Source: a virus (Duplodnaviria > Heunggongvirae > Uroviricota > Caudoviricetes). From it: 5,071 nucleotides of DNA. Both the position numbers and the translations under genes were made by a program. Location: the IMG/VR virus record IMGVR_UViG_2778261420_000015; one strand, given 5' to 3'. This document shows positions 1-5,071 of this stretch, piece after piece. Every line of letters begins with the position of its first letter. Position 1 is the first letter of the stretch. The notes beneath the pieces are model-generated. The model was not told the origin of the DNA and made no database searches. It saw only the letters and a program-made list of their open reading frames with translations.

Positions 1-495
1 CCTTTACTGTGTATATAAATAAATTATGTACACATAAATAATGTAAAGGCGTCCTTTTAGATATATCTTATCAAATGTTAATGACTTGAGTGGGAAATAT
101 GATTCCAGCAACTTATCATGTGGCTACTTTATAAAAATAATGCCCATATAAAACAACAAGCGAAAAGGATTACGGATAAAAAAGGAGCGAGATGTGCGAA
201 CTTGTTATTTTCCATGTTTAACCACCTTAAATAATTGATGATGACGGGATGATTGCATCTGTAATGCTTTTATTGAAATGTTATGATAAAAAAGAACTTT
301 TGCATAACATTAAAATGTAATTTATCTAATCGTTTTTAATAATAAATGTCGTATTTCTATCCTTGTACCAGCTATTTGATATGTAGTGTTTGTTCATGCT
401 ATGTGGGGCTTTACACCATAGCCAGTTTATTTATACTTTATTCGTCAGCCTGAACAACTGGCATCTGCTGCGCTGCGCCATCGAGAGATTGAGAA

Positions 496-1095
496 ATGGC
501 GCATATACAACTGGTCAAACAAACTTCTTCTGGTTTACTTCTCCCGGCGACGCCGGAGAGTTGCGATTTTCTGCATCAAATCAAAATAGGTGAGTGGATA
601 CACGCAGACTTTAAGCGTGTGCGTAACTACGCATTCCACAAGCGTTTTTTCAAACTCCTGCAACTGGGATTCGATTACTGGACTCCGGTCGGTGGGGCGA
701 TCACGCCTCGCGAACGAGAACTGCTGTCTGGTTTCGTTGATTACCTGTGCGAATCAGTTGGTCGGGAACACACGCCAGCCCTGAGTGATGCCGCAGAGCA
801 ATACCTTAACACCGTTGCGACTCGTAGAACCCGGGATACGGCGTTGCTAAAGTCGTTTGAGGCTTTCCGCGAGTGGGTAACCATTCAGGCCGGATTTTAC
901 ACCGAGCATATTTATCCGGACGGTAGCCGTGGGCGTCGGGCAAAATCCATCGCTTTTGCGAATATGGACGAAGTCGAGTTTCAGCAGGTTTATAAATCTG
1001 TACTGAATGTGCTGTGGAACTGGATTCTGTTTCGTAAATTCTCCTCTCAGGAGGAAGTTGAAAATGTGGCCGCACAACTACTGGAGTTTGCGTAA
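496..1095 (+). CDS. Phage Nin-region protein of unknown function (DUF1367-like as best recollection)
   Basis: 199-aa ORF with ordinary, non-low-complexity composition. Its TAA stop overlaps the next gene's ATG (TAATG at 1093-1097), which indicates translational coupling in an operon. Position is directly upstream of a YbcO-like gene and Q, as in lambdoid Nin regions. The family name is from memory and unverified. Confidence 0.6.
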   Translation: MAHIQLVKQTSSGLLLPATPESCDFLHQIKIGEWIHADFKRVRNYAFHKRFFKLLQLGFDYWTPVGGAITPRERELLSGFVDYLCESVGREHTPALSDAAEQYLNTVATRRTRDTALLKSFEAFREWVTIQAGFYTEHIYPDGSRGRRAKSIAFANMDEVEFQQVYKSVLNVLWNWILFRKFSSQEEVENVAAQLLEFA

Positions 1096-1385
1096 TGGTG
1101 AATTTACGTAAAGCGGCTAAAGGCCAGATGTGCCAGATCAGAATCCCTGGCTACTGCAATCACAATCCCGAAACCTCTGTGCTGGCGCATTACAGGCTGG
1201 CGGGGACGTGCGGAACAGCGACAAAACCACACGATATGCAGGCGGCGATAGCCTGTAGCTCATGCCACGATCTAATCGACGGGCGGGTAAAAACCAGCGA
1301 TTACACCAAAGAAGAATTGCGCCTGATGCATGCTGAAGGGGTTTTTCGCACACAAGAAATCTGGAGAAAGAAAGGTCATTTATGA
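1095..1385 (+). CDS. YbcO-like small Cys-rich (probable zinc-binding) phage protein, DUF1364 family, putative nuclease
   Basis: 96-aa ORF. N-terminal MVNLRKAAKGQMCQIRIPGYCNHNPETSVLAH and later CSSCHDLIDGR supply four cysteines in a C-x8-C ... C-x2-C layout typical of a zinc ribbon. This closely resembles my recollection of DLP12 YbcO. The start overlaps the upstream stop, and the TGA stop overlaps the next ATG (ATGA at 1382-1385). Confidence 0.65.
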   Translation: MVNLRKAAKGQMCQIRIPGYCNHNPETSVLAHYRLAGTCGTATKPHDMQAAIACSSCHDLIDGRVKTSDYTKEELRLMHAEGVFRTQEIWRKKGHL

Positions 1386-1924
1386 TTTACCCAACGAATA
1401 CAGGAAAAAGCGGAGAACACCTTCGCCTCACCACGCTGGAAAGTGTCTGGATTCAGGGAAAACTACGTATGTGGGGGCGCTGGTCGTATATTGGCGGTGG
1501 CAGGTCAGGGAATATGTTCAATCAGTTGTTGGCATCCAAAAAACTGACGAAAACAGCCATTAATGAAGCCCTGCGTAGAATGAAAAAAGCGGGAATAGAG
1601 AAAGCTGAGCTGGAAGCGTTTTTGCGAGAGATGATCAACGGCAAGCAAAAGAGCTGGCTGGCGCATTGTACTGATGCAGAGGCGTTATGTATTGATCGAG
1701 TCATAAGTGAGGTGCTGGCAGAGCATCCAGGATTGATTTGCATTCTCCGGCAACGCTATGAAGGGCGGGGGATGACTAAGCGCAAAATGGCTGAATTGCT
1801 AAATGATGGACACCCAGAGTGGTGTTTTAGCACATGCGAAAAACGGATTGCTAATTGGTTAGCTGTTGCTGAGTATGCCCTATATATTCCCATGCGTGAA
1901 TCATTTGCTGAGAAAATGGCTTGA
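1382..1924 (+). CDS. Late-gene antitermination protein Q-like
   Basis: 180-aa ORF, last gene of the coupled triad. It is followed within ~85 bp by a strong intrinsic terminator and then by accessory genes and the lysis cassette, which is the canonical Q-pR'-tR'-lysis layout. Cys/His motifs (HCTDAEALC..., EWCFSTCEK) are consistent with the zinc-binding Q families of phage 21/82-type elements. The assignment rests on context and motifs rather than a search. Confidence 0.6.
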   Translation: MIYPTNTGKSGEHLRLTTLESVWIQGKLRMWGRWSYIGGGRSGNMFNQLLASKKLTKTAINEALRRMKKAGIEKAELEAFLREMINGKQKSWLAHCTDAEALCIDRVISEVLAEHPGLICILRQRYEGRGMTKRKMAELLNDGHPEWCFSTCEKRIANWLAVAEYALYIPMRESFAEKMA

Positions 1925-2003
1925 TTTCTTACGTATAAACTGCTTCAATTTTGCTATGCTTCGCACAGCTGTATCGCGAGGCGGATTGCAGACATGGACA
2001 TCG
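1925..2003 (+). promoter_or_regulatory. Candidate late promoter (pR'-like) and Q-utilisation region
   Basis: Interval between the Q stop and the terminator. It contains TTGATT (1921-1926) and TATAAA (1934-1939), but their spacing is wrong for a single sigma-70 promoter, so I cannot pin the -35/-10 elements. Called from position only. Confidence 0.25.
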
Positions 2004-2031
2004 TAAAAAAACCGCTTAATGCGGTTTTTTT
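2004..2031 (+). terminator. Rho-independent terminator, tR'-like (symmetrical, possibly bidirectional)
   Basis: AAAAAAACCGC-TTAAT-GCGGTTTTTTT: GC stem ACCGC/GCGGT (2011-2015 / 2021-2025), flanked by an A7 run upstream and a T-run downstream. Confidence 0.6.
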
Positions 2032-2351
2032 ACGTCAGGAAAGCAGGGGAGAATGCTGCTAGTTGGGCAACTGGTCTTTCTGCTCCAAATTATAACAGAG
2101 ACCAGTTATAGTTTCGGTGCTGTGTTTTTTTTACAATATTGTGATAACACATTGCTGGCGGGAGTTTTGATATTTCTTGGCAGGGGCTGATGATGCGTTA
2201 TCCTGATGTCGTCAACTCATATAAAATGAGATGAGAGATCATTGCAGGGTGGTTTGTAATTCGCTGTTTAGCGGGACAATATGTTGTCTGATACAAGACA
2301 CCCGACGCCTCAGATTACTATAATAAAGACGAAGCATCCTTTGTATTGACC

Positions 2352-2378
2352 AACCGCCTGTTTAGGCGGTTCTTTTTG
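2352..2378 (+). terminator. Rho-independent terminator
   Basis: AACCGCCT-GTTT-AGGCGGTT (perfect 8-bp stem, 2352-2359 / 2364-2371) followed by CTTTTTG. Confidence 0.55.
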
Positions 2379-2908
2379 GACTGGTTTATTGTATGCCAAA
2401 TGATTATTAAAAAGGTTGTGTTAATAACAAAATCCGAAATAATATGCCTGCATATTTTTATCTTGCTTATATTCTGCATATTGTGCATAGCAGGCTCATC
2501 CCTGCAATCAAAACTGTATGATGAGTATTTTTTTTTTCCTTTTTTCCAGTCATCTGATGATGACCTGCTTCTTTTTAATCCGGATCGACATCAGTTTTTT
2601 AAGATAATTCCTGCGAGTTATATGCATAAATACCACAAACTCCGCATTTTATGTGGTTGGGAGTTGCCGGGCGCGCAGTGAGTTTGCTAAGAAAACTCCT
2701 GCATGGTGAATCCCCCTGTGCGGTGGGGTGATACCATTAACCTTTTCTGTCGCCGACAGGTATCACGAACATTTTGTTCACCGGGAGGCACCCGGCACCA
2801 TGCACTTCAATAGATTCTCTCCACATTATGGATATTCTTTCAGAATATCCCACGCAGACTTTGTGTAAATGTTAACAAATGTGCGTTTTATTTGATCTGA
2901 TTCGCTGT

Positions 2909-2938
2909 TTGAGCGTCCAAAACAACGGTATATATAAT
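2909..2938 (+). promoter_or_regulatory. Candidate sigma-70 promoter for the first TolA-like lipoprotein gene
   Basis: TTGAGC (2909-2914), 18-bp spacer, TATAAT (2933-2938). It lies ~30 bp upstream of the 2968 start codon, which has a GAGGA Shine-Dalgarno at 2960-2964. Confidence 0.4.
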
Positions 2939-2967
2939 CCTTTACTATATGACATATGTGAGGAAAA

Positions 2968-3396
2968 ATGGGTTTTCGTAGCGCATCAATTCTTACGTTG
3001 ATTATTAGTGGGATTATTATCGGGTGCACTGATGCTGTATCGACAAATTATCATGACCGTACATCATATTACTCCGATAAAGCAATAGAGACACAGTATG
3101 TGAGTTCATCTGAACGTACTTCTGATGTTAGTGAGGATATCCGTCTGTATGCCCATCAAATCAAGAGCGCCATCGAAAAACAGTTCGGGGATGCGAGTAA
3201 GTATTCAGGAAAAGAGTGTACACTGAGAATGCATATGGCCCCGAATGGCCTTCTACTGGAGGTTAAAAGAGAAAGTGGAGACCTCGATTTATGTCGTGAA
3301 GCGATGAATGCGATAAAGAATGCTGATATACCTGCCCCCCCTTCGCCGGAAGTATATAAAGTATTTCAAAATGGGGTGCTGGATTTTAAACCCTGA
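2968..3396 (+). CDS. Prophage lipoprotein with TolA C-terminal domain III-like fold
   Basis: 142 aa. The N-terminus MGFRSASILTLIISGIIIG-C is a signal peptide with lipobox IIGC; residues after the Cys are T, D. The C-terminal ~85 aa (LYAHQIKSAIEKQFGDASKYSGKECTLRMHMAPNGLLLEVKRESGDLDLCREAMNAIKNADIPAPPSPEVYKVFQNGVLDFKP) aligns by eye almost colinearly with E. coli TolA domain III as I recall it (...YAGQIKSAIESKFYDASSYAGKTCTLRIKLAPDGMLLDIK...ALCQAA...KIPKPPSQAVYEVFKNAPLDFKP), including both cysteines and the terminal LDFKP. Good RBS and own promoter. Confidence 0.8.
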   Translation: MGFRSASILTLIISGIIIGCTDAVSTNYHDRTSYYSDKAIETQYVSSSERTSDVSEDIRLYAHQIKSAIEKQFGDASKYSGKECTLRMHMAPNGLLLEVKRESGDLDLCREAMNAIKNADIPAPPSPEVYKVFQNGVLDFKP

Positions 3397-3546
3397 TATT
3401 TATTGTTTTGTAATAAACGGTTTCGGCTTAGGTTTGTTCTGACACAGCTACGGCACTGAGCTAAATTTAGCGGATAGTCAGCTCTGAGCCAGTGGCGGAC
3501 GTAACAACTACTATTGCTGAGATTTTAATGGATTGAGGAGCAAGAA

Positions 3547-3942
3547 GTGGGATTAAAGAAAATCGTTATGTTGACTTTTTGGGTCGGTTTTGTTGCGGGA
3601 TGCACACCTTTACACCCTTCAGATTGCCACAAAACTACTGCTACAGGTAGTTGCAGTTCAGGACGCTGGGATGATCAGGATGAATGGGGGGCGCAAGCGC
3701 GGGGAATCAGAGCTGCAATTAATGCCAAACTTGATGAGCCGCATAACTGGAAAGGGAAAAAATGCAGGTTGCATATGGAATTCTCTCAGGATGGCACGGC
3801 GTTAAAAATATCTACCAGTAACGGTGATAAAGCCTATTGCGAAGCGATAAAGTCCGCAGCTCATAAAGCCAAATTTCCGGCCTTCAACAATCCGGAAGTC
3901 TACAGAGATTTTCAGAAATCTGGCTTTGACATGCGAGGTTAG
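3547..3942 (+). CDS. Second, divergent TolA domain III-like lipoprotein (paralog of 2968-3396)
   Basis: 131 aa. GTG start at 3547, preceded by GAGGAG (3535-3540). Signal peptide MGLKKIVMLTFWVGFVAG-C with lipobox VAGC. The C-terminal region IRAAINAKLDEPHNWKGKKCRLHMEFSQDGTALKISTSNGDKAYCEAIKSAAHKAKFPAFNNPEVYRDFQKSG keeps the two cysteines and the PEVY..FQ core of the TolA-III-like domain, but the rest is diverged and the terminal LDFKP is replaced. Confidence 0.75.
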   Translation: MGLKKIVMLTFWVGFVAGCTPLHPSDCHKTTATGSCSSGRWDDQDEWGAQARGIRAAINAKLDEPHNWKGKKCRLHMEFSQDGTALKISTSNGDKAYCEAIKSAAHKAKFPAFNNPEVYRDFQKSGFDMRG

Positions 3943-4067
3943 CTCTTCAATTACTATATCTCATTCATAGCAAACTGACAGATTTGATGATGTTCTATAT
4001 ACGAAACCTGTGATGTCAAGTCTGAGCTAATACAAATAAACATAATATCAGAGAAATACATTTTATT

Positions 4068-4092
4068 AGCTCGCTACGGCGAGCTTTTTATA
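4068..4092 (+). terminator. Rho-independent terminator closing the accessory island
   Basis: AGCTCGC-TACG-GCGAGCT (7-bp stem) followed by TTTTTAT, about 100 bp upstream of the holin start. Confidence 0.5.
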
Positions 4093-4193
4093 TTGCATCG
4101 TCTCCAGCATATATATCAATTAAGGCTCTGATTGATGTGTCTGAAAGCCTACACATAATAACTATGCCATCCGTTCCGTGCGGAGGTGAGGCT

Positions 4194-4409
4194 ATGAAAT
4201 CCATGGACAAAATTTCAACAGGCATTGCCTACGGCACCTCCGCAGGCAGTGCTGGCTACTGGTTTTTACAGTTGCTCGATAGAGTAACTCCGTCACAGTG
4301 GGCTGCAATCGGTGTGCTGGGTAGTCTGGTATTTGGCCTGCTGACGTACCTGACAAACCTTTATTTCAAGATTAAAGAAGATAAGCGCAAGGCTGCGAGA
4401 GGTGAATAA
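4194..4409 (+). CDS. S: Class II pinholin, phage 21 S-type, dual-start (antiholin from 4194, holin from 4203)
   Basis: [28 protein letters not shown]...[36 protein letters not shown] matches the S21 pinholin nearly residue for residue from memory. The two starts are M-K-S-M (ATG at 4194 and 4203); the extra Lys is the known antiholin determinant. GGAGG at 4182-4186. TMD1 is Gly/Ala/Ser-rich (SAR-like); TMD2 carries a glycine-zipper. The track's 4137 start is an upstream in-frame extension lacking an RBS. Confidence 0.9.
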
Positions 4410-4906
4410 TGCCTCCATCATTACGAAAAGTCGTTGCTGCTGCTATTGGTGGCGGAGCAATTGCTATAGCATCAGTGTTAATCACTGGCCCAAGTGGTAA
4501 CGATGGTCTGGAAGGTGTCAGCTACATACCATACAAAGATATTGTTGGTGTATGGACTGTATGTCACGGGCATACAGGAAAAGACATCATGCTCGGTAAA
4601 ACGTATACCAAAGCAGAATGCAAAACACTCTTGAATAAAGACCTTGCCACGGTCGCCAGACAAATTAACCCGTACATCAAAGTCGATATACCGGAAACAA
4701 CGCGCGGCGCTCTTTACTCATTCGTTTACAACGTGGGTGCTGGCAATTTCAGAACATCGACGCTTCTTCGCAAAATAAACCAGGGCGATATCAAAGGCGC
4801 ATGTGATCAGCTACGTCGCTGGACATATGCTGGCGGTAAGCAATGGAAAGGTCTCATGACTCGTCGTGAGATTGAGCGTGAAATCTGTTTGTGGGGTCAG
4901 CAATGA
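4409..4906 (+). CDS. R: SAR endolysin (phage 21 R-type lysozyme, T4-lysozyme-like catalytic domain with N-terminal signal-anchor-release segment)
   Basis: 165 aa. The N-terminal [27 protein letters not shown] is a weakly hydrophobic Gly/Ala-rich SAR domain. It is followed by an E...D...T arrangement ([22 protein letters not shown]) matching the catalytic triad layout of R21-type lysozymes. The ATG overlaps the holin stop (TAATG at 4407-4411). Near-identical to my recollection of R21 / DLP12 RrrD. Confidence 0.9.
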
Positions 4907-5010
4907 ACAGAGTAACCGCGATTATCTCCGCTCTGGTTATCTGCATCGTCGTCTGCCTGTCATGGGGTGTTAATCATTACCGTGATAACGCCATTAGACT
5001 GGCCCCCTGA
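4903..5010 (+). pseudogene. Rz: Rz (i-spanin) 5' fragment, truncated by IS2 insertion
   Basis: The start overlaps the endolysin stop (ATGA at 4903-4906). [31 protein letters not shown] is the N-terminal TM anchor of phage-21-type Rz. After codon ~31 the frame runs into IS2 sequence (RLAP-stop at 5008-5010). The embedded Rz1 frame would lie beyond the insertion and is not in the window. Confidence 0.8.
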
Positions 5011-5071
5011 ATCTCCAGACAACCAATATCACTTAAATAAGTGATAGTCTTAATACTAGTTTTTAGACTAG
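4995..5071 (+). mobile_element. IS2 (IS3 family) left terminal region, partial; element continues past the window end
   Basis: TAGACTGGCCCCCTGAATCTCCAGACAACCAATATCACTTAAATAAGTGATAGTCTTAATACTAGTTTTTAGACTAG matches the IS2 left end as I recall it (the bases that follow in IS2 would be TCATTGGAGAACAGATG, the insC start). The junction is ambiguous by 1-2 nt, at about 4995-4997. Confidence 0.75.

Follow-up and report, generated by a model that had tools for sequence, protein, structure and literature searches.

The Rz spanin gene of a Rac-type prophage lysis cassette runs into the left end of IS2 at codon 31

IS2, the Rz/Rz1 spanins, the phage-21-type lysis genes and prophage genes inactivated by insertion sequences are all well known, the last for example from the defective prophages of O157 (PMC2669165). 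In Escherichia coli K-12, the curated copy IS2A lies in yaiX, is 1331 bp in length, begins with TAGACTGG, ends with AAATCCA and is flanked by a 5-bp duplication, ATTAC. The body of IS2 spans about 1331 bp and comprises insC/orfA and insD/orfB with a programmed -1 frameshift. Its left terminal inverted repeat (IRL), of 42 bp, is the transposase-proximal end of the element and carries the element's own promoter, PIRL (PMC3299598). Residues 1-24 of the Rz protein of phage lambda form the transmembrane domain (TMD), and all nonsense mutations tested in lambda Rz, as far along as residue 152, abolish lysis (PMC5295617). The partners of Rz/Rz1 in lambda are S and R, and the phage 21 / DLP12 cassette carries S21/essD and R21/rrrD. 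An inactivated spanin gene is presumably also present in the Rac prophage of K-12, in what we take to be the order rzpR pseudogene-rzoR-trkG.

The window (the whole stretch of viral DNA analysed here, 5,071 nt in length) contains a lysis cassette whose last gene is cut short within sight of its start. We consider, at a probability of roughly 0.85, that this Rz gene belongs to a Rac-type lambdoid prophage in E. coli or Shigella and was split at codon 31 when a copy of IS2 (IS3 family) transposed into it. Rz would be the third gene of a mosaic cassette made up of a phage-21-type holin, an SAR endolysin and a lambda-type Rz/Rz1, with the IRL of IS2 facing the endolysin and the transposase genes co-directional with the late operon. 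The features on which this reading is based are listed in Table 1.

Table 1. Features of the window relevant to the interrupted lysis cassette.
Feature	Position	Strand	Basis
Q-like late antiterminator gene, DUF1133 family	1382-1924	+	Pfam PF06576, E = 7e-107
Phage-21-type holin, EssD-like, 71 aa	4194-4409	+	Pfam PF04971 'Bacteriophage P21 holin S', E = 2e-35
SAR-type lysozyme, RrrD / R21-like endolysin, 165 aa	4409-4906	+	Pfam PF00959, E = 2e-45
Rz i-spanin gene, native 5' portion (codons 1-30 and 2 nt) with N-terminal transmembrane anchor	4903-4994	+	100% identity to intact 154-aa Rz (SE11 and others)
Truncated fusion ORF Rz' (35 aa), 31 native residues followed by RLAP, stop TGA 5008-5010	4903-5010	+	No Pfam family
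Predicted 5-bp target site GCCAT, of which a second copy is expected at the IS2 right end	4990-4994	+	Other IS2 copies
IS2 left end: 42-bp IRL and promoter/leader region, nt 1-77 of the 1331-bp element	4995-5071	+	77/77 identity to K-12 IS2A

Many E. coli strains, e.g. SE11 and CI5, have an intact essD-rrrD-Rz region to which 4100-4994 is 100% identical. When 4100-5071 was compared by megablast with 5,426 complete E. coli genomes, thousands of essD-rrrD-Rz cassettes were matched, and in every record listed the match to the intact cassette ends at query base 895, which corresponds to window position 4994. In the alignment, SE11 continues past ...GATAACGCCAT with CGCCTACAAAGAAC... and the window continues at the same point with TAGACTGGCCCCCTGAATCTCC..., the native continuation ATCGCCTACAAAG being swapped for TAGACTGGCCCCC. 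The 77 nt that follow are identical throughout to nt 1-77 of IS2A of E. coli K-12 MG1655, and the match opens on the first nucleotide of the element, a terminal T (TAGACTGG...), at its left end, so that the terminal inverted repeat (TAGACTGGCCCCC...) is followed by PIRL and the leader. The IS2 copy of SK1144, which has the same length of 1331 bp, gives the same match to 4995-5071. IS2 has the same orientation as Rz and the late operon. The Rz frame retains 30 native codons and two bases before IS2 begins; the third base of codon 31 is the first T of IS2 (ATT; native ATC), and isoleucine is encoded either way. The preliminary description had Rz running, after about 31 intact codons, into the left end of IS2; the break in homology falls on the exact terminal nucleotide of the IRL, and the coordinates, the codon count and the left-end call were all correct.

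Two other origins of this arrangement were considered and rejected. A chance match to IS2 is ruled out by the 77/77 identity from the exact terminus of the element and by an E value of 3e-32 for the 78-nt query 4994-5071 against 28 Gb. A different small gene in place of Rz is ruled out by the match to the beginning of an intact PF03245 Rz gene, which is 100% at the nucleotide level. Two alleles of Rz are in circulation, ...AIAYKEQ... (as in SE11) and a lambda-like ...AITYKAQ... (L009 4495-4959). Against the lambda-like allele the homology seems 2 nt longer, reaching 4996, which accounts for matches given as 1-4996; the SNPs upstream of the junction in the window agree with the SE11 allele.

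The ATG of Rz (4903-4905) overlaps the stop codon TGA of the endolysin (4904-4906) in the sequence ATGA (4903-4906). Such an overlap with the endolysin stop, together with an Rz1 embedded in the +1 frame, is common to lambda Rz/Rz1 and the intact allele of the relatives, whose Rz is 92% identical to lambda Rz and whose Rz1 is 96% identical to lambda Rz1. The N-terminal anchor of Rz is present in the window directly after the endolysin: residues 1-31 are 100% identical to SE11 Rz, and 28 of these 31 match lambda Rz. The two periplasmic coiled coils (CC1 and CC2) and the C-terminal Rz1-contact region are missing, since the ORF ends at 5010; in the intact SE11 protein (154 aa), PF03245 'Bacteriophage Rz lysis protein' covers residues 29-152 (Pfam). 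The sole Rz product encoded is a 35-residue peptide that consists of the membrane anchor and four IS2-encoded residues, and the gene, judged by its sequence, is a truncated fragment and not a functional member of the Rz family. The Rz1 lipoprotein of SE11 (61 aa, MRKLKMMFCVMMLPLVVVGC..., PF06085) is encoded in the +1 frame at nt 221-406 of Rz. As Rz1 has this position in intact relatives, it lies wholly distal to the insertion, and the portion of Rz that holds it is absent from the window. The truncation is equivalent to an early nonsense allele of Rz, comparable to the lambda Rz amber mutants, which are lysis-defective (PMC5295617). The lambda mutants carry point mutations, whereas the lesion in the window is an insertion with an inferred length of 1.3 kb, which also parts Rz1 from the upstream genes. 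In one related genome (L014 4495-4957), Rz contains two 1-nt deletions, one of them in a C-run, which leave ORFs of 71 and 81 aa; these frameshifts could be real decay or sequencing error.

The two lysis genes upstream of Rz appear complete. The holin is labelled essD in 100%-identical E. coli records, and a longer GTG-initiated ORF for it opens at 4137. The endolysin matches PDB entry 4zpu ('Lysozyme RrrD') over its full length (E = 9e-111), with three substitutions in 165 aligned residues and with the Gly/Ala-rich N-terminal segment included in the alignment. A full-length match of nearly equal score (E = 3e-110) was obtained for 3hde, which we take to be the R21 structure. The product is an SAR-type endolysin and forms with the PF04971 holin a pinholin/SAR endolysin pair of the phage 21 type. 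The presence of a P21-type holin and endolysin beside a lambda-type embedded spanin pair therefore makes the lysis cassette a mosaic. It differs from lambda in the type of its holin and endolysin; it shares these with phage 21 / DLP12, the holin falling into the Pfam P21 holin family and the endolysin matching RrrD, but unlike that cassette it is located, in the relatives, in a Rac-type prophage next to trkG, and its spanin gene is interrupted in the window.

The upstream part of the window contains a DUF1367 gene, YbcO and the DUF1133/Q-like gene. The last of these also matches PF06530 (Phage_antitermQ; 26.4 bits against a cutoff of 26), and its homologues in phage records are labelled antitermination protein Q. 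E. coli CI5 is 100% identical to the window over positions 1-4994, and there the segment forms part of a Rac-type prophage at ttcA that seems to be full-length. The order in CI5 is intR, xisR, ralR, recT, recE, kilR, sieB, repressor and replication genes and an 8-kb cargo island, followed by the genes of the window, an intact Rz, trkG, ynaK, terminase and head and tail genes; given this full-length context, there is no obvious sign in the closest relatives that the element is a remnant. A prophage remnant had been considered on the strength of chromosomal-looking genes upstream, and was ruled out: the transporter and regulator genes in CI5 are a cargo island within a full-length Rac-type prophage. 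This island (L004 12370-19682, ~8 kb) has the replication genes on one side and the DUF1367 gene on the other; the first bases of the window adjoin it. It encodes a BCCT transporter, a DUF2254 protein, a LysR regulator, a gamma-glutamylcyclotransferase, an MFS transporter and a DUF1971 protein. The Rac prophage of K-12 belongs to the same family and has the same Rz-trkG neighbourhood as the relatives. There, we assume, a deletion took away Q, the holin and endolysin genes and the 5' portion of Rz, whereas in the window both of these lysis genes are intact and the damage to Rz comes from IS2.

Several further features were observed between the Q-like gene and the holin. At 2295-2371 (+), a consensus scan located a promoter-like AAGACA-18-TATAAT and, ~30 nt on, a strong terminator-like hairpin with a T-run (2352-2371); this arrangement, downstream of Q, could be pR'/tR'-like. 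The long spacer from Q to the holin contains a match to the Rfam family of STnc100 sRNA at 2671-2857 (+) (RF02076; 86.6 bits, gathering score 47). At 2968-3396 and 3547-3942 (+) lie two small genes, paralogues of each other, whose products have a TolA C-terminal domain (PF06519) and which look like late-operon cargo genes; the first, which has an additional weak match to TonB_2, bears a pseudogene label in CI5 and DSM 103246 and is intact in the window and in SE11. A second terminator-like hairpin was found by the consensus scan just upstream of the holin at 4068-4085 (+).

The junction between Rz and IS2 was not found in the 5,426 complete E. coli genomes (megablast with 4100-5071 and with the whole window) or in plasmid or phage records, and an exact 26-mer across it was absent from the GTDB species representatives, the JGI metagenomes and IMG/VR. 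An exact-protein look-up returned no called protein on record for the truncated ORF in either its 35-aa or its 39-aa form, and a look-up of the endolysin returned only contexts with uninterrupted Rz DNA (one of them L014, with its frameshifted Rz) or with IS2 elsewhere. The uniqueness of the junction among these collections, and the fact that the window ends in a multi-copy repeat, are what would be seen if a contig had been mis-joined at its end or had ended in a repeat, in which case Rz would be intact in the real genome. We regard such an assembly artefact as scarcely credible, since a join at the exact terminal nucleotide of IS2 is the mark of transposition, unlike a random chimera, and a contig that ends in a repeat still needs reads that span the junction. 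The insertion site at codon 31 of Rz is in none of the collections searched, yet it is not a new kind of thing: K-12 IS2A has the same first 77 nt, including the 42-bp IRL, and likewise interrupts a coding sequence. The difference is that IS2A is complete, whereas the window holds the left end only, and that the Rz codon 31 target is in no database record searched.

A group of genomes (H56-H69) matched the whole window with '100% coverage' and was rejected as an occurrence of the same insertion; this coverage is an artefact of piece-joining, IS2 being upstream of essD in these genomes and not in Rz. Many E. coli genomes, DSM 103246 and the others of this group, have a whole copy of IS2 in the same Rac-type cassette, 36 nt ahead of the essD ATG. 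This copy is inserted at the equivalent of window positions 4154-4158 (L003 10159-11489), in the orientation of the late operon and with a CATAA duplication. The window is without IS2 at 4154-4158, and the site upstream of essD is a second, independent IS2 target in the lysis cassette.

The ATG of insC/orfA, at IS2 nt 92, is 14 nt past the end of the window, and no right inverted repeat (IRR, ...GGGGCAAATCCA) is found within the window, which itself holds the first 77 nt of the element only; we infer that IS2 is complete at the junction. As a rough prior for an IRL belonging to a whole IS2, three 78-nt segments of the element were counted in E. coli genomes. The IRL end (window 4994-5071, i.e. 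one flanking base and IS2 nt 1-77) was found at 21,589 places, with a median of three copies per genome, compared with 14,734 places for IS2 nt 78-155 and 10,873 for the last 78 nt; the corresponding numbers of E. coli records at at least 99% identity are 3,506, 3,200 and 3,011. These counts suggest that most canonical IS2 left ends, though not all, accompany a complete element. The surplus of IRL-end places is in the direction expected if the window contained a solo left end, the remnant of a truncated or decayed IS2 that would leave Rz truncated and supply no transposase. This is very improbable here, as the 77 nt are 100% canonical IS2 and the record numbers for the three segments are similar, and part of the surplus probably represents divergent IS2 relatives that megablast misses in the less conserved segments.

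Copies of IS2 with both ends visible carry 5-bp duplications, as seen in K-12 IS2A (ATTAC) and upstream of essD in DSM 103246 (CATAA). The most likely continuation of the window is thus a complete 1331-bp IS2, then a duplication of GCCAT and then the remaining part of Rz/Rz1; a simple insertion would give ...GGGGCAAATCCA followed by GCCATCGCCTACAAAG ~1331 bp past position 4995. As the window ends inside IS2, the DNA beyond the element might also not be the rest of Rz, through an adjacent deletion, an inversion or recombination between IS2 copies. E. coli genomes, with a median of three and up to 41 IS2 left ends, offer substrates for such recombination, and relatives (L012 among them) have more IS copies in or around the prophage. 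Such an event would have deleted or displaced Rz1, and perhaps also trkG and the terminase or head genes, leaving a grossly defective prophage. We consider a rearrangement of this kind unlikely, however, since simple insertion with a 5-bp duplication is the usual outcome for IS2 and was seen in both examples examined, and direct evidence of a deletion was not seen. In the given sequence, Rz is truncated under all three of these alternatives, i.e. rearrangement, solo remnant and chimera.

It had also been suggested that the insertion could act as a polar block or as a mobile promoter. Lambdoid late transcription is antiterminated by Q and resistant to terminators. Since terminators do not stop Q-modified RNA polymerase, transcription on induction is expected to continue into Rz1 and the late genes downstream, and with this read-through the main effect of a simple IS2 insertion should be the loss of Rz protein and not polarity. 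IS2 does have Rho-dependent terminators, which are the basis of the galEP3 reporter (PMC8141534); with late transcription expected to be Q-antiterminated and a Q-like gene in the window, a polar block is doubtful. The mobile promoter finds no support in the predicted right junction either. The sole outward element known in IS2 is a -35 in the IRR, which forms Pjunc with a -10 exactly one base past the end (PMC3299598); applying this Pjunc geometry to the predicted right flank (G-CCATCG...), a -10-like hexamer does not appear at the required spacing.

The consequences for lysis can be predicted by analogy. With Rz truncated, no spanin complex would bridge the inner and outer membranes. On induction, cell killing by the holin and murein degradation by the SAR endolysin would still take place, and the outer membrane would stay intact; the cells would become spherical and fragile and would release little phage, except under shear or in a medium with few divalent cations. 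Lysis through the phi21 pinholin-SAR endolysin pathway depends on spanins, as does lysis through the lambda holin-endolysin pathway, and in shaken cultures a spanin defect is masked by shear and shows only when the outer membrane is stabilised by millimolar divalent cations (PMC6139136). Spherical, non-lysing cells are therefore what published lambda and phage 21 genetics would lead one to expect, and the poor lysis foreseen in the preliminary description agrees with the literature on lambda Rz and the phi21 spanins (PMC5295617, PMC6139136).

It seems decidedly doubtful that the insertion is more than neutral decay and belongs to a set of independent, selected, recurrent IS2 hits, the site upstream of essD being a second one, that tame lysis by Rac-type prophages while the holin and endolysin are kept, or that late transcription drives the IS2 transposase at induction. 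In the latter case, as IS2 is co-oriented with the late operon, Q-antiterminated transcription might read into insC/insD and boost IS2 transposition, and the spread of IS2 would be coupled to prophage induction. The insertion is better regarded as a routine case of ordinary IS-mediated prophage inactivation. For annotation, the 35-codon ORF should be treated as an IS2-disrupted Rz pseudogene and the prophage as lysis-impaired despite its intact-looking holin and endolysin. Prophage predictors, and induction or lysis experiments on the source strain, should accordingly expect killing without efficient release.
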